A stretch of 63,818 nt of DNA, the filler included, from Collodictyon triciliatum (Eukaryota), in NCBI GenBank assembly GCA_043381765.1. It is 26 parts of 26 records of this genome, joined end to end, with 100 filler letters (N's around TTAATTAATTAA, not from the genome) between each part and the next. Parts side by side here need not be neighbours in the genome. Positions count along the whole stretch, not along the records: positions 61,469 to 63,818 come from JBHJMP010009047.1; 25 more parts are not named here. One strand, 5' to 3'. Position numbers and translations under genes: made by a program. The notes under the pieces were generated by a model that made no database searches, was not told where the DNA came from, and saw nothing but the letters and a program-made list of their open reading frames with translations. Below are positions 4,461 to 63,818 of this stretch, one piece after another; position 1 is the stretch's first letter; each line of letters begins with the position of its first letter.

Positions 4461-4932
4461 CTAAGATGGTGATGATAAATGAGAGGGTGGGGTATGTTAG
4501 CGATGCATGTTTTTACTTCTTTTTTTTCCTCATTTTTTCCTCCTTTGTTCATTTCCAATTTTTACAAATCATGGGATATTAACTGTGGATGTTAATCATA
4601 CATGATTATATGTGAATGATTTAAAAATTCCTATATTCGATTCAAAATTTGTATGAAAATATATTAAAATATTGCATGAAAATATTCTGTTTTTTTCCTT
4701 TTTTTTCTTTTTTTCTTTTTTTCTTTTTTTCTTTTTTTCTTTTTTCTTTTTTCTTTTTTCTTTTTTCTTTTTTCTTTTTTTCTTTTTTTCTTTTTTTCTT
4801 TTTTTCTTTTTTTCTTTTTTTCTTTTTTTCTTNNNNNNNNNNNNNNNNNNNNNNNNNNNNNNNNNNNNNNNNNNNNTTAATTAATTAANNNNNNNNNNNN
4901 NNNNNNNNNNNNNNNNNNNNNNNNNNNNNNNN

Positions 4933-6170: not shown

Positions 6171-7566
6171 CCTGTATATTAATTTAAGAATCAAATATGT
6201 TCTGATGAATTTCAGTTTGAAATTAAGACAATATTAACCGAACTTATACAGAAAGGATTTTTCTCAATATAATTCCTATATTTTCACTATATTATTTGTA
6301 TATTTATTCATTTATTTATATTTCTTTTTTAATAATACAAATAAACTTATTTGATGTTTTAATATATTCAGATGAGATGAATGAACAATTTGTTCGAGTT
6401 TGGGTGATATTACAATATATGGATAGTATTGATTATTTTGGGTGAAATCAAATATTTACAAAGTTAATTTGCGTTTTATTTTTTCAGATGACCTCAAAGA
6501 GTCATTGATTTGCGTTTTATAAATTTGAGAGACTAATTTATGGAATACTTAAATAGATTTAACTTCACACTAGTTTATGATCCACTTTTTCAAAAAAATC
6601 TAAGTTGTAATATCCTCAATTAGACAGAGTCTCTGATTTTACATTTTTACTTTAAGTATTTCGAATTTCTTCATGGAAAAATTGATTTTGTATTAATAAC
6701 TTCAAATTTATTATAATCTCAAAACAACTTAACTCCTAAGAATCGACAATATTTGGAAGCATCTTTTAATTGATTTGAAATGTAATTATATGATAACATT
6801 TTAATAATTAATGGGTTAATATATACAATAAAGGTAATTCTGAATTTGTAACAGATATTATAATTCAAGGCTTATTATTTTTCAAAATTTTAGAGTGCAA
6901 GAGTTATTAAAAAATTAATTATATACCAAAACCTTCTATCATATAAGACTAAATGTTATCTTTCATAATAAACTAACATATTTTGATGTTTTTAAGTCTT
7001 CATGTCAAGTAATCATATGATTTTCATATTTGGATAATCTTTGGTGGAAAAATTTTAACTGGTAATTTTGGATCTATTAAACGTTTATTTGGATCAAGAT
7101 AGCACAATCTGAACAAATATTTGAATAAAATGGATGTATCAATAATTCGATTATATGTTATTGTGCATTATTTTTCGATTTGGTCTTTTGGTCTTTTGGT
7201 CTTTTGGTCTTTTGGTCTTTTGGTCTTTTGGTCTTTTGGTCTTTTGGTCTTTTGGTCTTTTGGTCTTTTGGTTTTTTGGTTTTTTGGTTTTTTGGTTTNN
7301 NNNNNNNNNNNNNNNNNNNNNNNNNNNNNNNNNNNNNNNNNNTTAATTAATTAANNNNNNNNNNNNNNNNNNNNNNNNNNNNNNNNNNNNNNNNNNNNTT
7401 TCTTTTCTTTTCTTTTCTTTTCTTTTCTTTTCTTTTCTTTTCTTTTCTTTTCTTTTCTTTTCTTTTCTTTTCTTTTCTTTTCTTTTCTTTTCTTTCCTAA
7501 ACATCTAGATAAAATCAATGTTCTCTTGATGTTAGTTAGTCGTATATCAATCACATAACAATCTAC

Positions 7567-9477
7567 CGGTGAATTGTTCAAGGAAGACGACTAGAAAAGG
7601 AGCAAGCAAGTCGTTTATTCCTTGAACATAACCGCTGGCTGGGTGGCGAATAGACCAAACATACAAGACACGCTCACACAACTGATAAATTTGGTACAAA
7701 ATAATAATTAGAATTTGTGACAAACAAGAGAGTGAAATATGTTTAAATGAGCAGAAATAGTATTGCCTAATAATTTCCTTATTGTACATACATACGAATA
7801 TATAGGATGAATGAGAAGCCAAAACTTTATTTTGCACAAACTGAAAGGAATAATAACAATAAAAAAAAATCGGAGGAATGAGAAGAATCACATACTGCTT
7901 GGATCCGCTTTTGTTGAAAAAGAGGGACATTTGGAAGTGTTCGAGGTAAGTCTAGCAGAATCTGTTCAAGAATATCAAATAATTAAAAGAATTAAAAAAA
8001 GTCAAAAGATATTAAAAACGATAACCACGCAATAAACTATTAAATTTGACCGTAAAAAACGTAAACATCTCATGAAAAATAAACAGAGGAAATATGTTTT
8101 ATAAATGATTCAAATATAGTCTCACTTGTCTTGATATATCCTCCTCCTGCTCAGTTTTCGTGGTGTTCGACCCGAAGTACCGATCCACATAGGTTTTGTA
8201 TTCTTGTCGCTTCCTTTCCAATGTATATTGGCGCCTCTCTAGATTAGTAGGCAAGTAATCCTAAAGGCATTGATGCCAAAAAGAAATAAAGGGATGAAAA
8301 TAGCGATAACAGGAGCTATCAAAAAAAAAAAAAGCTATTAAATTTTATTGACTGGACCGTATTTTCAATAAAAGAACAAAAACTTGCCAGTAAATACATC
8401 CATACAACGGCTCTATTCTCCTTTGGTATTCCAGCCCAACTCAGTTTTTTGAGATCCTCTATATATATGTCATGGAAAATATAGCTTAGAATGATGTATT
8501 CTGGAGTATTTTCCCATCTTCAATTTTTTTTTGTTTTTTTTTTAAAAAAAAAAAACGTTCGTCTGTGGATTAGAAAAGTGGTCATTTCATGATGGCATTT
8601 GAACATCGGGATGATACAAATAATACAATTTTTAGTTATTCTTTAGAGTAACAGGTATATACATATCCATAATGGTACCTAGTTCAATCATCGGTTCAGA
8701 TAAAATCCTTTGAAATTTTGTTCTTTTTGAATCATTTGATGATGAAAAAGTTTCCACAGACGCAGCCTCATCAGATTTTGGAGAGTTATCATGACCAGAA
8801 TTCTGTAACAAAAATTCATTGTGATTCTGCTTCATCCCTTGCTCTGATTTTGTTTTGCTTTCTTTTATAAAGACAGTAAAGAAAGTTGCAAGATTTTGAC
8901 TCATAAATCATAATAAGTTACTTTCATAATTAATATTATGGAAGTATACTGTAAAAGGTCGATGAACTACTATGCTTCCAATATCTCGGGGCGTATCTGA
9001 AGAAATTCCATCTGTTGGCGTACTTTATAAAAGAAAAACGTTATACTTGGATTATGTACGTTCTTACATTGTAAAGATAGTCTAGGGTATATTGCAGAAT
9101 TCTGGAAAAATATGTAAAGGGAATATGCCAAAAAAAAAAAAGATGCCCTAATTTAGCGAGGAAAAATGAGGACAAAATAGTTATGCTCGACTGTGAACCA
9201 GAATACCAGTAATTACTTTAAATGTAGAATGCTACTAAATTATCAAAAGGCAGTAGAAGTAGATGTTTTGAAGGCGAAATCAATAGTGAATTGTTCATTG
9301 GTATGAAACACTCATTGGATACTTTTTTGTATGAAGACTGCGACTCCCGCCTGGGTTAGCGACGACGACTTTGATGCCACCAGGTCGCTTTGCAGAGTTT
9401 GGTCTTTGGAAAAGTGAAGGTTGATGAAATGGCACGGCAGAAGGAACATTAGGATGTTTCCCGTTGGTGTCGGCCAT
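7567..9477 (-). CDS. TBC1D22: Rab GTPase-activating protein TBC1D22/Gyp1, 3'-truncated, multi-exon
   Basis: LKKLSWAGIP..RAVVWMYLL, YLPTN..LERKRQEY, ILLDLPRT, ERVLYVWSIRHPASGYVQGINDLLAPF. Confidence 0.92.
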
Positions 9478-10300: not shown

Positions 10301-12206
10301 CTGTGCCGCCGCTTGGGCTTGTGCCTTTGCTTCAGCAGCTCGTTCGGCCTTCTTCAACTGAGCCACNNNNNNNNNNNNNNNNNNNNNNNNNNNNNNNNNN
10401 NNNNNNNNNNNNNNNNNNNNNNNNNNNNNNNNNNNNNNNNNNNNNNNNNNNNNNNNNNNNNNNNNNNNNNNNNNNNNNNNNNNNNNNNNNNNNNNNNNNN
10501 NNNNNNNNNNNNNNNNNNNNNNNNNNNNNNNNNNNNNNNNNNNNNNNNNNNNNNNNNNNNNNNNNNNNNNNNNNNNNNNNNNNNNNNNNNNNNNNNNNNN
10601 NNNNNNNNNNNNNNNNNNNNNNNNNNNNNNNNNNNNNNNNNNNNNNNNNNNNNNNNNNNNNNNNNNNNNNNNNNNNNNNNNNNNNNNNNNNNNNNNNNNN
10701 NNNNNNNNNNNNNNNNNNNNNNNNNNNNNNNNNNNNNNNNNNNNNNNNNNNNNNNNNNNNNNNNNNNNNNNNNNNNNNNNNNNNNNNNNNNNNNNNNNNN
10801 NNNNNNNNNNNNNNNNNNNNNNNNNNNNNNNNNNNNNNNNNNNNNNNNNNNNNNNNNNNNNNNNNNNNNNNNNNNNNNNNNNNNNGTGCAACTGGACCAT
10901 GTGGTTCAACTTTTCATCCATGTCCTTGGACCATTCAAGTTGATCGAATGAGCTGGATGTCTCAACCAAGTTGTCTGGTGGATTTATAAAAGCACATAAT
11001 CAACCAAAGCACGAATGCAACAAAACAGCACGGACATAGGTATCGGATGCCATAAACAAAACAAAACAAAACAAAACAAAACAAAACAAAACAAAACAAA
11101 ACAAAACAAAACAAAACAAAACAAAACAAAACAAAGCAAAACAAGAGAGAATGAAAAGTGGTTGAGTAAACTAAAGGACGAAGATACATACCAACGGAAA
11201 CTGACAAACCTGCATGCCGGACTCGCTTTCTCCTCGATGAGGTTGAGCCTGTGAGGAAGGTTGACACCGCAGGAGTCGGAGAGGACATGTCACTCTGGGC
11301 CACATGTCTTTTGGGGCTATGGTTGAGGTTAACCGCGGGTGGCATTGGGTGAGAGCGCATTCGGGGGCTGTCGCTCGAGTAGACTGGGGATCCAACATCG
11401 CTGGGGATGTCAAAGAGATGGAAGCGATGAAAGTGGCTATGGCTGTGGCTGTGGTTGTGGTTGTGATGCGGCTGTGGTTGTGGTCGTGGCTGTGGTTGTG
11501 ACTCGCGCGACGGGGACTCAGACGAAGGCTGCGAGTGTGTGGCAGTGTCAGTATGCGTCCCAGACTCGACAGACGCAGACTCGGCGGACTCGGACTCAGC
11601 AGAGGCAGAGGCAGAGGCAGAGGCAGAGGCAGAAGGGATTGTGCCGGGGTGCTGCAGAGGGCTTCGTGGTGGTGGAGAAGGCTGGTGCAGTCGCTGCAGG
11701 TGCGCGTGGCGGGCCGCGGCTCGGTGGGTGGCTGTGGCTGTGGCTGTGGCTGGTCGAGGAGATGCTGCGGTGTTGGGGGACTCTCCACGGTGTGGCTGTG
11801 GCTGTGGTTGTGGCAACGAGGCCAGGAAGGAGTATGTGGCAGTGAAGAAGGGGCAGTTGCGGGCGGCGGGCCACTCGTGCAGCATGTGACTCCACATTTC
11901 CACCAGTTGCCGTTGTGTTTCTGCACGCTCATATTGCTGTGACTGTGGTTGCGCCTGATGTGCTTGTTCAGCTTGCTGGGTTTGTTGGGCTTGTTGGGCT
12001 TGTTGGGTTTGTTGGGCTTGTTGGGCTTGTTGGGTTTGTTGGGTTTGTTGGGTTTGTTGGGCTTGTTGAGCGTGTTGAGCGTGTTGAGCGTGTTGAGCGT
12101 GTTGAGCGTGTTGAGCGTGTTGAGCGTGTTGAGCGTGTTGAGCGTGTTGAGCGTGTTGAGCTTGTTGAGCTTGTTGAGCTTGTTGAGCTTGTTGAGGCAT
12201 AACCAT
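10301..12206 (-). CDS. Low-complexity Q/H/S/A-rich protein with the start of a Myb/SANT-like repeat, interrupted by an N gap
   Basis: GC-rich ORF with (QQA/QHA)n. It splices in frame (..RHA|DNLVET..) to EWSKDMDEKLNHMVQLH, which fits Myb W[ST]xxxDxxL. The rest is hidden by gap 10367-10885. Confidence 0.55.
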
Positions 12207-12330
12207 GTGGTAGGCGTGGTATGCGTATGGNNNNNNNNNNNNNNNNNNNNNNNNNNNNNNNNNNNNNNNNNNNNTTAATTAATTAANNNNNNNNNNNNNN
12301 NNNNNNNNNNNNNNNNNNNNNNNNNNNNNN

Positions 12331-12432
12331 GTAAGATATCTCCCACAGCATATCCAACCCCTGCTACCCACGCAACCAATCAACCAGTTGGGACGCCCAC
12401 CTGACCAACTCGCTATCACTGATTTCTTTCCG
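12331..12432 (+). mobile_element. Non-LTR retrotransposon ORF2 C-terminal fragment, cut by the contig edge
   Basis: Near-identical to 17498-17597 and encodes ..GRPPDQLAITDFFP. The downstream tail differs. Confidence 0.8.
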
Positions 12433-39109: not shown

Positions 39110-40213
39110 GTTTTGTTCGGTTGATATTAGAACAATGATTAATTCATAGATACTAATAAATACATTAAAACAAAATTCAAATTGCGAAGGCGGTTTCCTC
39201 GGCTTTGTTTTCTCTCAATAAACTGTTGAAAAGAAACCAAAAAAAAAAAACAAAAAACAAAATTCAAATTCTCACATACTTTTTNNNNNNNNNNNNNNNN
39301 NNNNNNNNNNNNNNNNNNNNNNNNNNNNTTAATTAATTAANNNNNNNNNNNNNNNNNNNNNNNNNNNNNNNNNNNNNNNNNNNNAAAGAAAAAAAGAAAA
39401 AAAGAAAAAAAGAAAAAAAGAAAAAAAGAAAAAAAGAAAAAAAGAAAAAAAGAAAAAAAGAAAAAAGAAAAAAAAGAAAAAAAAGAAAAAAAGAAAAAAA
39501 GAAAAAAAGAAAAAAAGAAAAAAAGAAAAGAAGGAAAAAAGAAAAGAAGGAAAAAAGAAAAGAAAAAAAGAAAAGAAAATGAAAAGTGAATCAAGCAAGG
39601 AACTTGTTGCAAGATAAAATTACAAGCTTCATGAGCCAAAGAAAGCGCAGGGATGGACAAGCGGACCGCATGCGATTGCATCCAGCGAGACAGACATGCC
39701 ACGTCTTGTTTCTTGATCCGCTTGAACCAAAAAGAGCTTCCGTTTGACTTTGCTGCCGTGTCCTTCCAAGAAATAATCATGAATCGTGCGGTTCGAATCC
39801 CGGACGATGCGCAGTATTTGGGTGTTTGTGGTGTCGGACGGAGGCAGCCGCAGCACTTTAGGCCGTAGCAAAGGATGTGCATCACACCGAGAAAGTGGGA
39901 TGCGGATATTTGAGCTGAGCATGAGTATTATCACCCTTTGGTATTACAGACCAACAACACCTCAAAAGATATAATAGATATGATGGTTAATGTTAGTTTA
40001 CCGGCAACTTTTTTTCTCTCCTTAGAATGTCGTACAGATATTGCATAACAGGATTGTCATTTTATTGTTGAGAGAGGCGATGAAGGCGTTTTAAAAGATG
40101 AAAAGTTTGATATGCATCCATGTTATTCTGGATGAACTAATTTTCTTTTTTTTTCTCCATTTCGTGGGAGACCCAAACAGGTGGTGATGGTGCTTTGGCA
40201 AATACCCGTTCGT

Positions 40214-40928
40214 CTATACAGCGCTTATGATGATTGTGATTAAAAGCAGGACACAGAAGGAGGCCACATCAACACGTGCCCAGAAGCGAACCCTCTTGTT
40301 GGGGTGATTCAGGTAGCAGAGACCGCCAAGACAGACGGGAGTACAGAAGATGCCGACGATAAACCTTAGGGGAAAAATGCTAAGTGCATACAGGATGAAA
40401 AGAAAAACACAGCACTTAAAAGAGGAAAAGGAAAGAAAAAAGTAACACTGAGATAGACTTTAAGGCAATCAGCAGGATGTGGTTTCAAATGATGTGGAGT
40501 TGATGGTAGTATATGAATGCACTCCGTAATTACAGTATAAGTGGAATGTTGTTGCATCCATCCACTCTCCCAGAGGAAGACGACGAGTTTGAGTGCCTAC
40601 GGACAACAACAACATGTGCAGGTTGGACCACCACATTCGCAGGCATGACAGCCTGGTTGGGTGGGATGTATCCGGGTGGGTGAACAGCATTCGGATCATT
40701 GTACGGATTATAACCAAGAGCAATTGGCTGTTGAGGCGGATACATTCCCGGTTGTTGGGGTGGATACATTCCTGGTTGTTGAGGCGGATACATTCCTGGT
40801 TGTTGAGGTGGATACATGCATTGTTGTTGGGGTGGATACATTCCCGGTTGTTGGGGTGGGTACATTCCTGGTTGTTGGGGTGGATAAGCGCCTTGTTTTA
40901 CAGGGTACGCTCCTTGCTGAGGATGCAT
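40214..40928 (-). CDS. Small Pro/Gln/Tyr-rich membrane protein: (YPPQQPGM)n N-terminus and two C-terminal hydrophobic segments, 2 exons
   Basis: 24-bp coding tandem repeat. In-frame splice IPLIL|FIVGIFCTPVCLGGLCYLNHPNKRVRFWARVDVASFCVLLLITIIISAV*. Confidence 0.8.
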
Positions 40929-42933
40929 GCTTTTCGTCCTAGGCTGGGTTGGCTATGGAGCGTGGCAAGGTGAGTTTGGGATTAATATAGGCAAGACGAG
41001 TTCTAGGTGAAGAATGGACTGGATATGCGAGTGGAGTGGCTGTGGAGATCGCCTGTTTCCTTGGGCGTCTTGTTTGGTGGGACAGGACGAGTGCGAAGGA
41101 ATGCATGGGTTAAGTCTGTGTGCTGGTGAAAGTTCTTGTTGTTTTGTGGGACTGCTGTGAGGCATTGATTGACTTTGTCCCTTATCTCTTTGGAATCCAG
41201 GTTAAATTAGCCAATTGTTCGACTCTGCAACGACGAGCGATTTGCACTGGGTTTGTTCTTAAAACATATATGGACAGTGTTCGTAAGGCTTTCTTGGGCA
41301 ACTGAAAATTTGATTTGGAAGTGGTTGTGCTTATTTTGGAGTTACACATATCCTGTGTGGAAAAAAGGTTCCATCGGCTTTGTCAAAGAACTCGATTTGC
41401 CAAAGGGAAAAAAAAGGAGGTTTCTCCATACTTCTTGCGATGGATATACCGATGGATAGTGAGCAGGGAAACCCCACAATGAAGGTGGAATATGTTAGAT
41501 AGCATGGCATCAGGCTTAACGTTTGTGGCTATGCGTGCATCCAAACCTGACGGCTGTTTGTGAAATGTGCATAAAAATGAAAATCGAATCACTAACTTGA
41601 TTTAATTTCTCTTGTAAACAAAAACAAAAAAACAAAACCAACTGCACAAATTCGACACTGCATGCATGTTTCTCTCCTTGTTTTGCTGCGTTTCACAATA
41701 AGAAAAAAAAAACAAGAGGAAACATTAAATGGCAGTCTGNNNNNNNNNNNNNNNNNNNNNNNNNNNNNNNNNNNNNNNNNNNNTTAATTAATTAANNNNN
41801 NNNNNNNNNNNNNNNNNNNNNNNNNNNNNNNNNNNNNNNTTTTTTTTTTTTTTTTTGTTTTTTGTTTTTTGTTTTTTGTTTTTTGTTTTTTGTTTTTTGT
41901 TTTTTTGTTTTTTGTTTTTTGTTTCTTTGTTTTGTTATTATTATTTCTCTTTGGCCTGTATTTGGTGAAGAGCTTGTATCATTTGGCACGAAGCTATTAT
42001 TACATTTCATTTTTATTTAATCTATAATATTAGTCTCCTTCGCCGCTTTATGCCTGAGATCAAAAGAAGGCAGCTGTTTTAAAAAAAGCTTATTGAGCAT
42101 TCTTTTTCCTTTGCCAGTTTTTTGAGTCTTCCTTTATTCTTTATATTTTACTAGAGCAAGAATTAAGCAAAACAAAAGTGCTAAGGACGTGCACCTAAGT
42201 GAAATGTGGTTTTTTTTCTTTTTGTTTTTTATTTTCACTCTTACCGATATAATGATGAATAAGGAAGAAAGGTATTCCTTCCAAAAGCATTTTTAAGTTG
42301 ATGTGTTTGTGTAATTCTTTGGAAGGTCGCATAAGAGAAAAATTGAATGGGTTTTTTAACTGAGATGAATTGGAAAAAAAAAATTGCGATACTATAATAT
42401 TGGACTAAACCTTTAATAATTCAAACGGAATTTCACTGTATTTTCAGGAATTGCACCTTTTTTTCAAAATGCAGATTCAATAAACAAAAAGCTTTTTTTT
42501 TTTTTTTTGGTCTTCCTCCAGTTTTTTTCCAGATTCTCTTCGGTGCGTGTGACAAGCATGTCACGAATTCAAAATTTAAGCTATATCCATACTTTTCGCG
42601 ACAATCAAAGATTTTTTTCTACTGGTTTGGAATATATATGAGCCGTGGTCAAATGCAGAGTAAGTTTTGTATGGAAAATGAAAGTGGTTGGGTGAAGATG
42701 TCATCGCTAGATTCTTTCGATGAAAAATTGTGCTACGTTGTGATAGCGATTTAAATGTCGAAGTCCTTGTCTTCCGATTGTTGGAGGCATCACCGCAGAG
42801 CATTGTTCTGGGCGCCCAGGCCAAGAGGCTAACTGCAACTTAATTTTGTGGGCTCACACGATCATAATAAAGCACCGAAAATACAGGGAATTATAAGAGT
42901 TGTTCAGATGAGATGTGTGTGGTAGGTGTAATG

Positions 42934-43275
42934 TTTTTTCTTTACAGTTTCAAACTAAAGTCGATTCAACTGTTCAAGGGGCAAGAAAAGTGCGCGTGGT
43001 AGAGAACAGATATGAGTAGGAGAGACTAGCGGGAAAGGCTGACGCCGGAAAGTAATCTATGACAGTGAGTGGGTCGGATGGGCGGCCGAACTGGTCGATT
43101 GGTTGCGTGGGTAGTAGTGGTGGAATATGTTGTGGGAGATAACTCATGACACGTTCCCACATCTCTCTTCGCTTGCGGTCAGAGTAACGAAGAATGCAGG
43201 CGTGTTTCAGCAAGCTGCTCAAGAGGTGGTCTTGCACGTTCGGTCGACTTATTCGAGTGAGAGAATACACGCGCA
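42934..43275 (-). mobile_element. Diverged, 5'-truncated copy of the same LINE 3' end
   Basis: SLLKHACILRYSDRKRREMWERVMSYLPQHIPPLLPTQPIDQFGRPSDPLTVIDYFP aligns to 17338-17600, with a ~30 bp internal deletion. Confidence 0.8.
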
Positions 43276-43874
43276 TCACAAGAATATAACGTTGGTATGC
43301 AAAGATATAGCACAATGTATGCTCACAAGGAAAGAAGAGAAAAAAAAAGTATATTATCCCTTTATTCGATTAAGAGAAGTAACAGTAAATTGCAAAATGA
43401 TATTTTCATCTGTTCAGAAGGACAATAGAAAGATAAAGAGCTTGAAAGCTCAGGCAGAAAAATTCGCTTCAGATGAATACTACACCGATAGGGTTTGGAC
43501 ATAGGGAGGAAAACACGTATCTTAACTATGATAATAAAGGGGCGGGAGCAAATGATAAAGCCATAACTGACTGGTCATGAGAAGGGGCGGAAAATGGTGT
43601 CTTGGAAAAACGAGGCACGACGATATATGGATAAGTATAGGCACTTGGGGCTATGATGCAACAAGAAATGCAACAGTCGATACTTTGCCTTTGTTTAAGA
43701 GAAGAATGAGGGCACCAGATAACCTCTTTAATCTTGCACAATAGTCATTTTTCGAAATATATATAACAGATTTAGACGTATCCAGCACATATCCTAGACA
43801 TAAAATGGGTTAGAGTGCTAAATCCATACAATATTTAGTAATAAGGGTAGAAGGAATCGAAGAAATGTAGAAAA

Positions 43875-44193
43875 TAAGACAAGACATTGTGGACTTCATT
43901 TCCCTACGCTTGTGCTCTGCGGCCTGCTTTGGACCCGCTGCGTGTGGCAAGTCGAGTCTCCGCCGTCGTAAGTCCATGGCTTCTGTTCGGATCGTCTGCC
44001 CCACTGCCGCTGCTCCCTTGTGCGTACGGATCCATCTCTCCGCGTTGCCTTGCCCTCGCTTTTGAGGCCTACGCGTTTTTATTCGCCCTTTTAATTAGTA
44101 TTTTTTTTTTTTTTGCTTTCACTTATAAAAAGAATAGGGGCAGACTTTGAATGAAAGAGCGCAGAAAGAAAAAAAAATAACAACAAGGGGCTT
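43875..44193 (-). repeat. Near-identical duplicate of bZIP coding exon 1 and its upstream flank (57790-58108)
   Basis: ~315 bp match with few substitutions. The ATG (44035) and splice donor are kept, but downstream bZIP exons are absent. Confidence 0.9.
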
Positions 44194-45028: not shown

Positions 45029-46596
45029 GCCTCATTGTTGCTTGTTTATTTCCCTCCAGTTTTCAGAGACGACGAGAAAAGTTCAGAGTTTTTTGAAAGA
45101 GGACGGACCAGCACTGCAAGCAGAGCTTCTTGCCCGCGATAAAGTATCTTCTTTTCCATCCCCTTACATTATAATATTGTGGCTCTATTTTTATTATGAA
45201 GTCACATATTTAATGCATATTGTAACTTTTCTTTTTCTCTGAAAACAAAATGTGATACCAACAATGAAATCAAATGTATCAGGCCAATCCCGAGTCCAGC
45301 TACATTTATCCCTTCTGGGACACTATGTACTACACATCGCGTGCGCCGCTTCCAATTAATATCAATCCGTTTCTCCAGTTTAAGGTTTGTGGGTGCATCC
45401 ATCTCCAATAATATGTTTGCCAAATATCAAGTCTGGCCGTATCACTTTTATCTTTATGAGTTGTGGGTATCTATGAGGCATACAAATTGATGCATTTTAT
45501 TTTTAATAAATTGGATATACAAGATATATAGATTGGATGCTTTTGTTGTAGGTCGACCCCAGGGCTCGTTTCAACACTCAATCACGTCGTGCTGCTACTC
45601 TAATTGCATCGTCGCTTAAATTCTACGATGCCCTCAAGAAGGAGACGTTGGAACCCGACGTTTTTCACATGGGAGAGATTGCCACAAAACCTTGGTTTAA
45701 GGCACTCGTCAACTACATTCCCAGGTTTTCTTTTAAGATAGCATCAAAGGCTCTTTGTTAATATCCAAGCTTCTTTTTCCTTTTTTTTCCTTTTTTTCCT
45801 TTCTTTTCCTTTCTTTTCCTTTCTTTTCCTTTCTTTTCCTTTCTTTTCCTTTCTTTTCCTCTCTTTTCCTCTCTTTTCCTCTCTTTTCCTCTCTTTTCCT
45901 CTCTTTTCCTCTCTTTTCTTTTGTTTCTTTTGTTTCTTTTCTTTTTTCTTTTTTCTTTTCTTCTTTTTTTCTTTTTTCTTTTTTTGAACGTCAAAATACA
46001 TTGAATCTCCATCAATAAGGAATAAAACAACGCAACGTTTGATATAGTTCGATAGCATATTATGCCGCCTATGCTGTACAATCTTATCCCTTAGATATGA
46101 GTCAGTACAACAAGCTCTTCTCCACCACAAGAATACCAAAGTAGTTGTCTCTCTTTGTCCCAAAATTTCATACCTTAGCATGACCTATCCGTTTTTCATT
46201 GAAATAATCATTGTTTTCGAAAAAAAAAAACGAAATTGATACATTTGATTTAGCCTGTAACAATTGATTTGATTGACATTAGGGTTGGGCGTGATGATAT
46301 CAAGATTCCGAGCAATCCCTCAACGTATGTATTCTATATTCTGTTTCTACCATTTTTAATTAAGTTTCCCTATGACCATTATAAAATCAGTTAGTATTTG
46401 AATACTAACACTAAACCATACAACATAAATAATTGTCTCGTGATTTATGAATTGTATGCCATCTAAGTACATGCATTTTAACAGAAACATAATTGTGATG
46501 TCAAAAAATCGCTTCTTCAAAATCGATGGCCTGGGTACTTACGGTCAATGGAAGACTGAAGCCGAGCTAGAAAGTGAAATTCTTGGGATTTTGAAG
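44500..46596 (+). CDS. CPT2: Carnitine O-palmitoyltransferase 2-like acyltransferase, 3'-truncated
   Basis: [71 protein letters not shown]. Confidence 0.9.
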
Positions 46597-47976
46597 GTTG
46601 CTACATGTCCCCGAATGTCAAATTATGTGATTGATATCCTTTTCCTTNNNNNNNNNNNNNNNNNNNNNNNNNNNNNNNNNNNNNNNNNNNNTTAATTAAT
46701 TAANNNNNNNNNNNNNNNNNNNNNNNNNNNNNNNNNNNNNNNNNNNNTGCATCATGTGTTGTTTTTGGGTGTTTTTATTGTTTGTTTTTATTGTTTGTTT
46801 TTATTGTGTGTTTTTATTGTGTGTTTTTATTGTGTGTTTTTATTGTGTGTTTTTATTGTGTGTTTTTATTGTGTGTTTTTATTGTGTGTTTTTATTGTGT
46901 GTTTTTATTGTGTGTTTTTATTGGGTGTTTTTATTGGGTGTTTTTATTGGGTGTTTTTATTGGGTGTTTTTATTGGGTGTTTTTATTGGGTGTTTTTATT
47001 GGGTGTTTTGGGTGTTTTTTTGGGTGTTTTTTTGGGTGTTTTTCTTCCTTTTTTTTCCCCCCTTTCTTATGCAAAGGTACGCAACCTCACAGAAAGTCTG
47101 CGGAGGCTTGGGTTGGACACGATCGCCCCAACGCGAAGGGCTTTGTTTACACACTTTGGATTTCGCCTCGCATGAACCGCTGGGTTGTTGCGGCGGAGTG
47201 GAACATTCTAGAATGCGATGCTTCTCGAGGAATTCCGTTTCGTGCTTTTGTTGCGGCTGCTTTTAACGGATTTTGTTTGCAGTCTGGAAATGGAAACCGT
47301 TGTCCAAATATATGTGTGAATTTCATCAAATGACTTTATTCACATGTGGAAATTAACATAATATATATTTTTTTCAGTAATATATTCTTACTTCTATAAT
47401 TGCATGTAATAATAGCTTCATTTATATGATATTTTATATCATAAATAATAAGGTATCGATGCGGTATTTTGATGCCTTAATCAGCATAGCTCGATTGCTG
47501 CCAGGCGCACATCCGGCCACGATCGAACGAGCCTTCTTTGAAAACACCAAAACCTTCCTCACACACCGTCCTTTCCGTCCTTCTTGTGGGTCGCTTGCAA
47601 CNNNNNNNNNNNNNNNNNNNNNNNNNNNNNNNNNNNNNNNNNNNNNNNNNNNNNNNNNNNNNNNNNNNNNNNNNNNNNNNNNNNNNNNNNNNNNNNNNNN
47701 NNNNNNNNNNNNNNNNNNNNNNNNNNNNNNNNNNNNNNNNNNNNNNNNNNNNNNNNNNNNNNNNNNNNNGAAAAAGAAAAAAGAAAAAAGAAAAAAGAAA
47801 AAAGAAAAAAGGAAAAAAGGAAAAGGAAAAGGAGAGGACAAAAATAAGCAAAAGTAAAATCCTTTTGCCACACGGCACTTATGTGATTTCATAAATAAAT
47901 GATTTAAAAATGAAACAATTGGTTGTAATCAAACGAAAAACAAAAACAAAGTAGCAGAAGTCAATAAAGTGAAACC

Positions 47977-49101
47977 ATGGCCACCGGACGATCGCGCTGG
48001 GATTCCCTTCCCGAGTACCTCAGAGAATATCGTTTCCCTTCCGAGGCAAAAGAGCAACTTTTAAGGGTTCAGACGCGCTACCAAAACCTGCAACCAGAGA
48101 TTCAACCATATGGTATTTTTCCAAGTTTGCATATGGTTAAAATATGTCGGCTGATACCGCCGATTCTTGTGACTTTTTCTTAATTTCCTTTATTTCTTTG
48201 TCATTTTTTGAAGTTGACTTGTGACATCAACAAGAGAATCAAATATACCAAAGCGTTTCGACGTTAACATTTTACACCTGGCTTTCTTTCCATTCCTTGT
48301 AATTCATTTACTCTGTTGGTTTTTTTTTTAAAATGTATTTGAATAGCATCATGTACCTTCCATAGAACATATCATCCAAAAAAAACATTTGTCCCATTAC
48401 CAAAGCATAGCTTTGTACACTTTGTTATATATCTTTTTAACGGTAATAATGAGATGAAAATTTATATTTGGTTGGTAAACTTTCATTTTTTTAAATGGGG
48501 TTCATTTTCTTAGTGATGAAAGGTCAATCGAAGCCCCAGAACCTGATTGCTTTAGTCGGAACTGTTCCTGTCTATAATCAAGGTTCGTGTAGTTCAATCG
48601 GCTTCTTGGATATTTTGATTTTTAAATTTGTTTCAATATTCAGTTCTGTTCATTTCGGGAAACAACAAGTGGGTATGAAATCAAAGATATGTTCAATCTC
48701 TTAAGATTTCTACCTGAATACTCTACATAGGAAAACAATATAACATACCCGTGAAGATTTATTTACCGGATATTTTCCCTCGCGCCAGTCCTATCATTTA
48801 TTTGAATCCTACCCCAGGTTTCCTTCATATTCCCATGCTTTTTCTCTCCCAAATAAATATGTTTGATTTTATGCATAAGGAAAAAAAATGTTTGATTTTA
48901 TGCATATGTTTAGTGATAAGCCATTCCGTACCTTTTTATATATATACTGTACATATCTTGTTCATTTTTAATTGATCATCCATTAAACAAACAACATATA
49001 TTGCATCATATAGACATGACATTCAACTCTGCGAACCGAATGGTCGCAGCCAACGGAGAGTTTATTTTTCCAGAATTACAAAGTTGGGGTCCCTCAAAGA
49101 A
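47977..49101 (+). CDS. UEV-domain protein, TSG101/Vps23-like, 3'-truncated
   Basis: LIALVGTVPVYNQ|GKQYNIPVKIYLPDIFPRASPIIYLNPTP|DM..VAANG..FPELQSW. Confidence 0.85.
48859..48906 (+). mobile_element. 10 bp micro-insertion (AGG-A7) with a perfect 19 bp duplication, inside an intron
   Basis: ATGTTTGATTTTATGCATA-[AGGAAAAAAA]-ATGTTTGATTTTATGCATA. Confidence 0.75.
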
Positions 49102-54108: not shown

Positions 54109-54206
<98 letters not shown>

Positions 54207-54425: not shown

Positions 54426-54476
54426 AACATTTCACATGAGAAGAATAAAGGGAAAAAAAAACATTTCACATGAGAA
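54426..54476 (+). mobile_element. 17 bp micro-insertion with a perfect 17 bp TSD
   Basis: AACATTTCACATGAGAA-[GAATAAAGGGAAAAAAA]-AACATTTCACATGAGAA. Confidence 0.8.
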
Positions 54477-57082
54477 AATCGTGGGTTGTCCATAGGTTGA
54501 ATGTTATTTCAGAAATTGGAAGTCGCGACTATATTATGAAATCTCCGCTCGAAAAAAACTACAAACCCAACTATCTAAAAAGTCGAACACACTCCTAGCA
54601 TCATGTTTTTCGACTTGGTAAGCATTTCCTCAATTTTTTTACACATATTTTTATTCTCTAAACTCCTCAACATGTGAAATTCATGATGCTAAAGTTCAGA
54701 TAAAAACTTTGAAACTATGAAAAATAGGCGACTTTTTATTAGTCAACGTATCATCGAGGAAAAACTTGTCCGATACTCTATTTTAAAAAATGAGGCACAA
54801 ATGTACGTTCATGCAATAATCATAATTGGACTTAAGCTATTCGCCCAGCTCGTTCGTATATGTGATATTCTTTTTTGTGACTGTTTGATTTTCAATAATA
54901 ACTCGCATCACAGAAAACGTGATACATTTGCGATATGGAAAAGAATCGCTGAATGGTCTACGCAAACTAATCGTGCCGCTTATAGCCACTTAATCGCCAT
55001 TCAAAGGTAAATTCTAATGGAACGTGTAGCCATTAAAACATTTATTTTTATTTCACTCTCAAATGTTCTGATAAAAGGAAAAGGCAAGAGAATATATTCA
55101 GACTTTGGTTGAATTTCACACACCTGTCCAAGGTTTCTTATTTAATACATACAACTTAAGAAAATGCTATGTCGTTTATCGAAAGAGTGTGATTTTTTAT
55201 CAAAGTATTTAGTTGATCAACTTTTCGGCTTTACAGTTTTTAATTTGATTGAAATAATGATGTTATTTAAAAGACAAAGAAACAGAAAAGTGAGTCATCA
55301 GTTCGTCACAGAAAGAAATCTTTGATGAGAAAGGTTTGTCGTGACTTTTAAATTGAACGCTACGATGGAACTAATCGCGCAATTCTTCATAATGACAGTC
55401 TTTCCTCGAGCTATATAAACAAGCACATCAGAATCGACGCATGCGCAGTGTCCTGAGTGGTTGGAAAAATGTATTCTATTTTAATGTATCCCATTATTGG
55501 ATATTCCTTTCATTTCTGTATCGCGCGTTTTGATAAATCTGCATCGGTAACAACAGTTAAGACATTTTTTGGTGCGATCGCTTCTTTAAATTTAAAAACC
55601 AAAATAAAACACAGGTAGTGGATAGAAACAAAAATTATCGGTATTTAACAAAGGTTTTGCTTCCGGGAAGCGAAGCCAGACTTAAATATGCAATGTTTAT
55701 GAGATGGAAGCAGCAGATTCAAGCCACAGTTTATTTTCAGCATCGCCTTATTTCTTTACTATTTAAGGTTAGCCTTGCGCTTCTTATTCAGAAAGCAAGA
55801 TAATACTCATGCGTGGATATTGCCACAAAAAATACATTTTCAAACCTCAAAACACATAGTCCTGGCGACTTTATGCGATTCAAAATGTGAAAAAAGAGGC
55901 TTTTATTCGTCGAGCAATAAATAAAATACGGTATGGTCTAATGCAAAGAACATTTACAGCATGGAGAATTCAATCAAGGTGACCATTAGATAGGATATAT
56001 TTGATATTTCTATCAATATCGACATAATATGTTGCATTTTTTTTTTTGTGTGTGTTATCATTCCTCATACTTGCTCTCATAACTTGCATGTAAATTAGTA
56101 AACAGTGGTCAAAGGAACTTCCTTTCCCCGCCAAGATGACTCGCTGGGTTGCATTTGAATCCCAGTAAGAATCATATTTAGCTGAAATTGATGGATACCA
56201 TTTTTTTAACGAAGTTTTTTTTTTTCATTATTTCGCCCTGCAGCGTCCGTCACCAACGATTCAAACTGATGACCGTCACATTTAATGTGTATGAATATAT
56301 ATATCGATTGGTTATTCTATAATTGAGACAGTGCCTTTCTTTATTATTATTTTTTGTTGCTATAAATGAGGAAAAAGTGTCACTATTTCGATTGAACCAT
56401 TTCTTTTTATTTATTTTTTATATAAAAAAGGTGGAGGAACCTTGCGTATTTCAAGAAAACNNNNNNNNNNNNNNNNNNNNNNNNNNNNNNNNNNNNNNNN
56501 NNNNTTAATTAATTAANNNNNNNNNNNNNNNNNNNNNNNNNNNNNNNNNNNNNNNNNNNNGACTAAAAGACTAAAAGACTAAAAGACTAAAAGACTAAAA
56601 GACTAAAAGACTAAAAGACTAAAAGACTAAAAGACTAAAAGACTAAAAGACTAAAAGACAAAAAGACAAAAGAGAGGTTCAGCAAGAGGAAATACGTCGG
56701 CCAGAAGGTCGGGAATGGGAGGAGAGGCCGTGTTGGCCAAAAGCCTGCAGCATGGGAGGTACAGCTGCCGGGTGAGCACTTTGCGACAATGATGCGAGAC
56801 TCGTCAGAACAGGAAAGCCCTCAAACGCAACAATGCAAGGAGCAGCCTCTCAGCCGGATCTATGAGTCTTGCGCTGTCTCTCTTTATTCGGGGCTTTCAG
56901 ACTCGCACAGAGCCATACAACAGAGGGGAGAAAAGGAAAGGAGAGAAAAAGAAAATAAAGGAGAGATAGAAAAAGAAAAAAACGAGCACAAAAAAAAGAG
57001 AAAAGAGAAAAAAAAAAGAGAAAAAAAATAGGAGCGCGAGGCAAAATGCAGGAATAGTACACTAGGCGCCGACTCTGAGCTG

Positions 57083-57949
57083 CTACTTGCGCGGAGGCAG
57101 CGAACCGCCAGGATTTGTACTGCTGCCAGAGACTGCGGGGTGGTCAAAGGGGCTGGGCGGGTACGGTATCTGCATCTGCATGGGCATCTGCATCTGCATC
57201 TGGGGCTGCATCTGAGGCTGGGGCTGGTAGACATTGGTGGCCGCCTGGGACAGGACGACGCGCAGGTACGAGAGCTGGTCCTTCAGCAGCTTGTTCTCCG
57301 TGGTCAGCGTGTTCACCCGTGTTTGCAGGTCTGCGTTCGCCCCCGTCAGCTCCGACGTCCGCTTTTCGAGCTCCGTGATGTAGTTTTTCTTGCGAATTCG
57401 CGATTGGTGCGCAGACTCCCTGTTCTTCAGCAGCCTGGGATGTGGTTAATATATCTGCTAGTGAACTTGATTGCTTGTTTGTTTGTTTGTTTGTTTGTTT
57501 GTTTGTTTGTTTGTTTGTTTGTTTGTTTGTTTGTTTGTTTGTTTGTTTGTTTGTTTGTTTGTTTGAAAATGCGACTCATTCATCCATGTAGAGTCTGACT
57601 CTACCTGCGCAACTTCTTGTCTTGCTCGTTGCCAATCCCGTCGGCCTCCCGCGAGTCCGAATCATCTTCTCCGTCGCTGGATTCATCGTGTGATGTGCCC
57701 CTATTCGCGTTGTGGGAAAATTAAGCTATCAGCGCCTCTGCCAAGGAGTTGAGGCAAATAATCAAAGCGATGGGAATAAAAAAAAACAAGACAAAAGACA
57801 TAGTGGACTTCATTTCCCTACGCTTGTGCTCTGCGGCCTGCTTTGGATCCGCTGCGTGTGGCAAGTCGAGTCTCCGCCGTCGTAAGTCCATGGTCTCTGT
57901 TCGGATCGTCTGCCCCACTGCCGCTGCTCCCTTGTGCGTACGGATCCAT
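57083..57949 (-). CDS. bZIP transcription factor, complete, 191 aa, exons 57822-57949, 57605-57700 and 57083-57434
   Basis: Exons total 576 nt in frame. DKKLRRLLKNRESAHQSRIRKKNYITELE, then a leucine zipper and a Q/M/P-rich tail. Confidence 0.92.
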
Positions 57950-58364
57950 CTCTCCGCGTTGCCTTGTCCTCGCTTTTGAGGCCTAGCGTTTTTATTCGCC
58001 CTTTTAATTAATTTTTTTTTTATTTTTTTGCTTTCACTTATAAAAAGAATAGGGGCAGACTTTGAATGAAAGAGCGCAGAAAGAAAAAAAAATAACAACA
58101 AGGGGCTTCACAGGCTTTCGCCTTTCCACCAGAGTCCCAAACACAACCGCGCAACACCTCACAGAAGAACAAGCCTCCTCAATCACACAAACATCACTCT
58201 CCTGCGCATGAAGCCGCTCACGCCCAAAGGAAACAAAGAGTCGTTCACATCGAGAAAGGAAGCGAGCAAAGTGCGCTGCAACAGTCGCCAGCGAAGGTCG
58301 AAGGGCGCAGTGCTTGTGTGGACTTTCTTCCCTCTGTTTTGTGCAGCTCGGGTGGCTGTAACCA

Positions 58365-61315: not shown

Positions 61316-61704
61316 CTCTTCCCTTTCCAAACGTCCCCTTTTTTCCCCTTTTTTTTTTTTTCCCCATTNNNNNNNNNNNNNNNNNNNNNNNNNNNNNNNN
61401 NNNNNNNNNNNNTTAATTAATTAANNNNNNNNNNNNNNNNNNNNNNNNNNNNNNNNNNNNNNNNNNNNTGTATGTATGTATGTATGTATGTATGTATGTA
61501 TGTATGTATGTATGTATGTATGTATGTATGTATGTATGTATGTATGTATGTATGTATGTATGTATGAAGGTATGTTATCCTATTTTGTCTACAATAAGTG
61601 TAGCTGACAAAATGAAATGGAGAAATCGAGAAATGGAGAAATGGAGCGTGCATGAAGTATGGCTTATTTTAATAAAAAAAAACCTTGAATTTTATATCCG
61701 CCAC

Positions 61705-63547: not shown

Positions 63548-63602
63548 ATCTTACTGCAGTCATTAATCGAATAAAGGAAAAAAAAATCTTACTGCAGTCA
63601 TT
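63548..63602 (+). mobile_element. 21 bp micro-insertion with a perfect 17 bp TSD
   Basis: ATCTTACTGCAGTCATT-[AATCGAATAAAGGAAAAAAAA]-ATCTTACTGCAGTCATT. The insert matches the element terminus at 17700-17718. Confidence 0.85.

Positions 63603-63717: not shown

Positions 63718-63818
<101 letters not shown>

Follow-up and report, generated by a model that had tools for sequence, protein, structure and literature searches.

The locus at positions 63548–63602 raises the question of how a few nucleotides from the very end of a LINE, followed by a short run of A residues, came to lie between two copies of one and the same unrelated sequence, and whether this reflects a single accident or a process that recurs in the genome. 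It was examined within a window of 63,818 nucleotides from Collodictyon triciliatum, by which we mean the whole stretch of DNA that was analysed. The window comprises 26 contigs, each of ~2.36 kb, with spacers of the form N44-TTAATTAATTAA-N44 between them, and the “~60 kb” over which the initial annotation counted its events is not contiguous genome.

The G+C content of the window is 36%. It is eukaryotic, and its open frames match the Pfam families WD40, NHL, Kelch, bZIP, LRR, zinc-dehydrogenase and cyclic-nucleotide phosphodiesterase. Scans of the window for Rfam families and tRNAs gave no matches. Microsatellites or short-period arrays are found at the start or end of most contigs (for example 1–166, 2269–2366, 2467–2646, 4700–4832, 54109–54206, 56561–56659, 61469–61566 and 63718–63818). 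Microsatellites are abundant across this genome generally, and simple repeats appear to be what breaks the assembly. Several long open frames were also seen. One of 670 codons (12682–14691, minus strand) is intronless, has a hydrophobic middle part and no Pfam match, and enters an (ATT)n-type repeat at a contig end. Two others (10962–12230 and 22344–23102) contain many Gln/Ala, Thr or Pro-Gln repeats and have overlapping open frames on both strands; they are low-complexity coding or pseudo-coding sequence.

Five inserts with a common tail

The locus itself (scar A, plus strand) begins with a 17-bp sequence (ATCTTACTGCAGTCATT, 63548–63564), continues with AATCGAATAAAGG (63565–63577) and eight A residues (63578–63585), and closes with the same 17-mer (63586–63602). 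This target-site duplication (TSD) is perfect, and the nick context is TT|ATCT. The 13-nt insert is exactly the last 13 nt of the LINE copy described below as the parent, the agreement extending to 19 of 19 positions when the A residues are included. This 13-mer has no other occurrence in its own contig and is identical to the LINE tail on another contig.

Two further sites on the plus strand are built in the same way. Scar B (54426–54476) consists of GAATAAAGGG (54443–54452) and A7 (54453–54459) between perfect 17-bp TSDs (54426–54442 and 54460–54476), with nick context TC|AACA; its extra G agrees with a subfamily ending ...AATCGAATAAAGGG at 43358–43371. Scar C (48859–48906) has the longest duplication, a perfect 19-mer (48859–48877 and 48888–48906; nick context AT|ATGT), enclosing just AGG (48878–48880) and A7 (48881–48887). 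As the insert of scar C has only AGG, or perhaps AAGG, in common with the LINE tail (3–4 nt), its assignment to the family is made by analogy with the other sites, and any A-tailed RNA could be its source. Taken together, the inserts of scars A–C are nested suffixes of AATCGAATAAAGG(G), followed by A7–A8.

The remaining two sites are older. Scar D (16097–16142) lies on the minus strand, where its 16-nt insert (16112–16127) is ATAAAGG followed by A9; its TSDs are imperfect (16097–16111 vs 16128–16142, 13 of 15 positions identical). Scar E (16315–16426, plus strand) contains an 80-bp 3′ end (16331–16410) with 86% identity to parent positions 378–463, flanked by 16-mers (16315–16330 vs 16411–16426) identical at 14 of 16 positions, with nick context TT|AAAA. 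The five sites, which share the same tail, have nested 5′ ends and retain 3, 7, 10, 13 and ~75 nt of element sequence, the range being 3–13 nt in scars A–D. Two source subfamilies, ending ...AAAGG and ...AAAGGG, agree with their respective inserts.

All five sites of the initial annotation were confirmed by reading, including the perfect repeats of 17, 17 and 19 bp at three of them. Also supported is its view that the inserts are LINE 3′ ends truncated to nested lengths, A-tailed and flanked by TSDs of 15–19 bp, as left by target-primed reverse transcription (TPRT).

The LINE family that supplies the tail

The parent (17257–17718, plus strand) is the longest copy with a tail, 462 bp in length, with its 5′ end cut by the contig start. 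It carries the C-terminal part of ORF2 (17257–17619, stop included; open frame 17257–17616), a 3′ UTR of ~93 nt, GAATCGAATAAAGG, and six A residues (17713–17718), the stop lying ~100 bp upstream of the tail. A related LINE family is present at 42930–43275 (minus strand), with 76% DNA identity; it shares the C-terminal ORF and differs in its tail (...CTGTAAAG plus A6). The open frame of the parent and that at 42977–43369 (minus strand) are 56% identical at the amino-acid level (E 5e-29), which, at 76% DNA identity between the two families, indicates that the C-terminal region is coding and conserved.

A third subfamily is represented by a 3′ end at 43346–43620 (minus strand), which ends TTAATCGAATAAAGGG and continues into a degenerate tail. 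Its portion at 43346–43371 had been considered as a further ultra-short scar and was rejected, as collinear matches to the parent UTR identify it as the end of a longer third-subfamily copy. An internal fragment of the family (12332–12431, plus strand; 100 bp, 96% identity) lies at a contig start.

An old copy at 36405–36829 (minus strand) connects the tail region to a reverse transcriptase (RT). Here, a fragment coding for 93 residues of the RT thumb (36551–36829, starting KYLGIIF...) is fused out of frame to the family 3′ region (36471–36557), which has a degenerate tail. The join falls in a CCCACC microhomology (36548–36560, minus strand), where this copy has probably suffered an internal deletion.

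Public protein records supply more of the element. P0020 overlaps the window ORF 17257–17616 at 96% identity and has, directly upstream of the overlap, a zf-RVT domain (PF13966; 33 bits vs a cut-off of 27.5), a domain that is typical of L1-like elements; it is present in P0005 and P0008 as well. The RT-thumb fragment shows 92% identity to both P0001 and P0011, and 59–61% to P0012 and P0013, the latter two of which have a complete RVT_1 domain (E 3e-30). In a comparison with solved structures, the best match of P0003 was human L1 ORF2p (5e-12 to 9e-12), R2 reverse transcriptases scoring 1.6e-9 or weaker. The nearest relative of full length, P0005 (33% identity over 92 residues), combines Exo_endo_phos, RVT_1 and zf-RVT domains and matches L1 ORF2p at 3e-57.

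Given that the family has an RT-thumb fragment and a zf-RVT domain just ahead of the tail-proximal ORF, and that its relatives match L1 ORF2p best among solved structures, the tail donor is, on sequence comparison, a genuine non-LTR retrotransposon with L1-like affinities. An element-encoded RT is represented by the thumb fragment, which shares a copy with the family 3′ region, and by the RVT_1 relatives. The A tails (A5–A12), the variable TSDs (13–19 bp) and the nested 5′ truncations (3 to at least 462 nt retained) are those of a non-LTR element, and the C-terminal zinc-binding domain that follows the RT in L1-like elements was found via P0020. The L1-like placement was made via solved structures, and the RTE, CR1, Jockey, I and Tad groups, which are without solved structures, could be alternatives.

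None of the three LINE fragments of the window matched a Pfam family in its own right, and all copies in the window stop short of the 5′ half of the element, where ORF1 would lie. Neither the window nor the close relatives showed an endonuclease domain of the tail-donor family. P0012, the longest of these relatives, begins in the linker; a protein search with its residues 1–150 gave no match, and a search for longer proteins carrying the C-terminal ORF found none. The APE-type domain (Exo_endo_phos) was seen only in the distant relative P0005, with which the C-terminal ORF gave no significant alignment.

In an all-against-all comparison of the contigs, the tail-donor family accounts for five of the seven inter-contig matches, and one other interspersed repeat for one. 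The second interspersed repeat of the window is found on two contigs (43871–44193 and 57783–58108; 327 bp, 96% identity). It has a minus-strand open frame without a Pfam match, and one of its copies enters a contig end.

Departure from chance expectation

Direct repeats were surveyed as exact pairs of at least 12 bp with a gap of at most 500 bp, filtered for complexity, and 80 pairs were kept. An array of 13-bp period (46.8 kb) contributes 67 of these, and a minisatellite of 24-bp period (40.7 kb; 40729–40886) another five. The rest are scars A–C and five pairs of 12–14 bp, a number roughly at chance level that includes the site at 6467 described below. Exact pairs of at least 15 bp with a gap of at most 500 bp occur outside the minisatellite only at scars A, B and C, while ~0.09 such pairs would be expected by chance (our own estimate at the base composition of the window).

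The orientation of the inserts is also uniform. Among repeats of at least 10 bp with a gap of 4–150, filtered for tandem arrays, four inserts end in at least five A residues abutting the second copy, vs none in the mirror arrangement. A regular expression combining repeat, tail suffix and A run, which the initial annotation had proposed to set against shuffled controls, gave four matches, namely scars A–C and one inside an (A8GG)n array, and no match in any of 200 dinucleotide shuffles. The pattern of tail suffixes between direct repeats exceeds chance.

With up to one mismatch, AATAAAGGAAAAA occurs 17 times in the window vs 1.07 expected, 11 of the 17 occurrences being in purine-rich tandem arrays. 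Purine arrays such as (A8GG)n are located, for example, at 26860–26999 and 45774–45900. A tail-derived origin of these and of a related array at 47805 was considered and found no support, since they are without adjoining LINE sequence and lie in a genome that is microsatellite-rich throughout.

It had also been suggested that the scars could be a major source of both small duplications and poly-A seeds. For duplications this is borne out, as all five dispersed duplications of at least 13 bp in the window are of this kind. The suggestion fails for poly-A seeds, as only 7 of 393 A runs of six or more residues can be attributed to scars.

Inserts from other RNAs and further candidates

Two additional sites carry A-tailed inserts that have no resemblance to the LINE. 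The first (39167–39270, plus strand; nick TT|AAAA) has a 70-bp insert between perfect 17-bp TSDs (39167–39183 and 39254–39270), and an AATAAA motif lies 17 nt upstream of its terminal A12CAA. The insert has the appearance of a polyadenylated RNA other than the LINE, whose 3′ end was inserted in trans. The second (6467–6520, minus strand; nick TT|ATAAAA) has a perfect 13-bp TSD and a 28-bp insert (6480–6507) ending ...CATCTG plus A5–6 on the minus strand. As both are unlike the LINE, they suggest that other A-tailed RNAs are inserted in trans and are likewise cut very short.

Two weaker A-tailed candidates were noted, one with a 28-bp insert between low-complexity repeats of 12–13 bp (29727–29779), the other with a 51-bp insert between 16-mers that differ by two mismatches (7803–7883). 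No relatives or parents of the inserts at 39184, 6480, 29740 and 7819 were found in the window.

Sequences of 19–20 nt that match the end of the LINE 3′ UTR at 90–95% identity occur at 4628–4646 and 55869–55888 (both minus strand; E 0.024 and 0.085). They have no A tail and no recognisable duplication, and may be old, decayed scars. A further candidate at 21054–21080 (GAATAAAGGAGAAAAAA) was rejected, as it has no TSD and its 9-mer match would be expected ~0.75 times by chance (our own estimate).

An external protein record, P0021, reads ...SPEREINIF-FSFIQFK-EREINIF-RLESP at residues 100–125. The segment FSFIQFK differs at one of seven residues from FSFIRFK, the frame-2 translation of the reverse complement of the tail. 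Read back from the protein sequence, this looks like an antisense tail insert of ~18 nt with its TSD, visible as EREINI(F) repeated on either side, located inside another copy of the same LINE.

Target sites and the length of the inserted copies

The nick contexts at seven sites are TT|AT, TC|AA, AT|AT, TT|AAAA, TT|AT, TT|AAAA, and TT|AA or AT|TT. T is found at position −1 in six of the seven and A at +1 in six or seven, a signal that is partly forced by delimiting a repeat beside an A tail. Position −2 is unaffected by this, and has T in five or six of the seven sites, for which the binomial probability is ~0.005–0.03 at 32% T (our own estimate, from a small sample). The nick sites lean towards TT|A, which upholds, with the reservation just made for −1 and +1, the earlier link between the TSD starts and TT|AAAA-like nicking, and within this small sample of seven sites they resemble the 5′-TT|AAAA preference of L1-like elements.

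The TSDs are perfect at five sites (83 of 83 positions) and decayed at two, and the presence of both states side by side indicates that the insertion process has recurred over time. Microhomology at the junctions is 0–2 nt, and would amount to 2 nt (TT) in scar A if the donor was the subfamily ending TTAATCGAATAAAGGG.

Nine LINE 3′ ends are present in the window, of which four have at most 13 nt, one has ~75 nt and four have ~275 nt or more. Copies are either up to 80 bp or several hundred bp long, with none found between, and no TSD-flanked A-tailed inserts of 100–2000 bp were found in the window. Of the longer copies, three (17257, 12332 and 36829) touch the end of a contig, so that the assembly shapes the length spectrum. 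Long young copies tend to break contigs, and the apparent lack of lengths from 80 bp to several hundred bp may stem from the assembly. Ultra-short insertions look unusually frequent here, a statement that applies to 26 short contigs of a fragmentary assembly and is not generalisable.

Structure in the 3′ UTR was considered as a possible stall site and rejected: the fold of 17600–17724 has a z-score of −0.79, and the alignment fold has six pairs, none of them covarying.

Origin of the scars

In all likelihood, the scars result from retrotransposition by an L1-like, poly(A)-tailed LINE family, through TPRT that ended almost at once. It is their anatomy that leads to TPRT, with a TSD, a nested suffix of the tail, an A run and the second TSD following each other in this order. 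The element endonuclease would nick one strand, preferably at TT|A, and the T-rich 3′ end, once exposed, would anneal to the A tail of the RNA. The RT would then copy the A tail and only 3–13 nt of the 3′ UTR (~75 nt in one case). The nascent cDNA would be joined to the other target end using 0–2 nt of microhomology, the second end having been cut 13–19 bp away, so that fill-in of the stagger yields the duplication, and the abortive intermediate would be sealed by host repair. The same machinery would act in trans on other polyadenylated RNAs and insert their 3′ ends, as at 39167 and 6467. We infer that the nick is made by an APE-type endonuclease.

To account for the shortness of the inserts, we favour the idea that cDNA synthesis is prone to abort in its first phase, rather than template run-off, because of the break in the length distribution, where copies of up to 80 bp and of several hundred bp are not linked in the window by any of intermediate size. 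A stronger proposal, which we make tentatively and consider possible rather than probable, is that TPRT has a distinct abort-prone start in this organism. About half of the integration attempts would then be sealed after at most 30 nt, leaving scars, roughly one in every 9 kb, from which most dispersed short duplications would derive and which would form a mutational signature missed by repeat annotation, possibly in many LINE-bearing genomes.

The main rival explanation also invokes TPRT, and assumes that the RT, with no abort of the enzyme, ran off the 5′ end of short templates, these being 3′-terminal RNA fragments left when LINE transcripts decay or are sliced by host small RNAs. Such templates would explain why the 5′ ends are scattered (3, 7, 10, 13 and ~75 nt) with no pile-up at one stall site, why little or no microhomology is needed at the junctions, why the inserts from other RNAs are short too (28 and 70 bp), and why the 3′ UTR is without a stalling structure. 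However, low processivity in the early phase equally predicts scattered, roughly geometric end points, and run-off and abortion cannot be separated by sequence. We consider the use of short templates rather unlikely, and retain early abortion of cDNA synthesis as the preferred reading.

Alternatively, longer LINE insertions may have been integrated and later deleted down to their last few bases. Internal deletions do occur in the family, as in the 36.5-kb copy, where the RT thumb is joined to the 3′ region at CCCACC. Nevertheless, at least three independent deletions would have had to end exactly at the inner edge of a perfect 5′ TSD, and a 5′ remnant of the element has been kept at no site, which makes this course of events very improbable.

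We give equally little credence to an artefact of assembly or sequencing, by which false short duplications and A-rich filler were created in a low-quality draft. The contigs are indeed short and end in microsatellites, but an artefact cannot explain correctly oriented suffixes of one tail between 17–19 bp repeats of unique sequence at several loci, nor the older copies with decayed TSDs, nor the recurrence of the pattern in an independent public protein record (P0021). Finally, tandem duplication with templated end-joining filler (polymerase-theta type), to which the short junction microhomology and the commonness of small duplications as an insertion class might point, or a mere chance resemblance, can practically be dismissed, as the fillers are without a local template and match the LINE tail on other contigs, the A run abuts the second repeat in all inserts (4 vs 0 in the mirror arrangement), and 200 shuffles produced no match. 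The scars are best read as TPRT that ended within 3–80 nt.

Relation to known L1 insertions

Severely 5′-truncated L1 events are described in human; the extreme cases are pure poly(A) tracts with TSDs, and such events are said to escape detection (PMC3219598, PMC3812793). Of 48 disease events, three are cited as simple poly(A) insertions, and a single poly(T) insertion in NF1 is interpreted as a severely truncated Alu, L1 or pseudogene (PMC3219598). Median lengths of human L1 inserts are 335–445 bp for somatic insertions (tumours) and 968–1520 bp for germline insertions (PMC13009371).

Like the scars reported here, the human severely truncated or simple poly(A) insertions combine a TSD (6–19 bp) and an A tail with a nick site of the L1-endonuclease type, and retain little or nothing of the element. 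The human events are recognised as products of L1-type TPRT. With their 3–13 nt of element sequence, scars A–D belong to this class as characterised in the two articles (PMC3219598, PMC3812793). They differ in that the human simple poly(A) insertions are described there as rare and have tails of 60–178 bp, whereas the tails here are A5–A12 and four of nine LINE 3′ ends carry at most 13 nt of element sequence. The scars are a clear further example of a known phenomenon, that of severely 5′-truncated or simple poly(A) L1 insertions. A literature search for organisms dominated by ultra-short LINE copies yielded nothing relevant, which is weak evidence of absence from print.

With L1-like elements in general (APE, RT and zf-RVT), the family shares the RT thumb, the C-terminal zf-RVT domain, the poly(A) tail, variable TSDs, the TT|A nick preference, 5′ truncation and the trans-mobilisation of other A-tailed RNAs. 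It differs in that an APE domain and ORF1 were not seen here, and in the distance to its nearest full-length relative. The inserts at 39167 and 6467 resemble processed-pseudogene fragments and orphan 3′ transductions, as these are described elsewhere (PMC3812793), in being A-tailed non-LINE 3′ ends with TSDs that are severely 5′-truncated and inserted in trans, but they are only 70 and 28 bp long.

Implications

If the window is representative, standard repeat annotation overlooks most integrations of this LINE family, although about one scar per 9 kb would each time duplicate 13–19 bp of the host sequence and contribute a short A run. In that case, estimates would change for the rate of retrotransposition, for the share of LINEs in small insertions and duplications, and for processivity in vivo. 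The same regular expression is applicable to any genome with a known LINE tail. The apparent two-class length spectrum would be a genomic read-out of either an abort-prone early phase of TPRT or host cleavage of LINE RNA.
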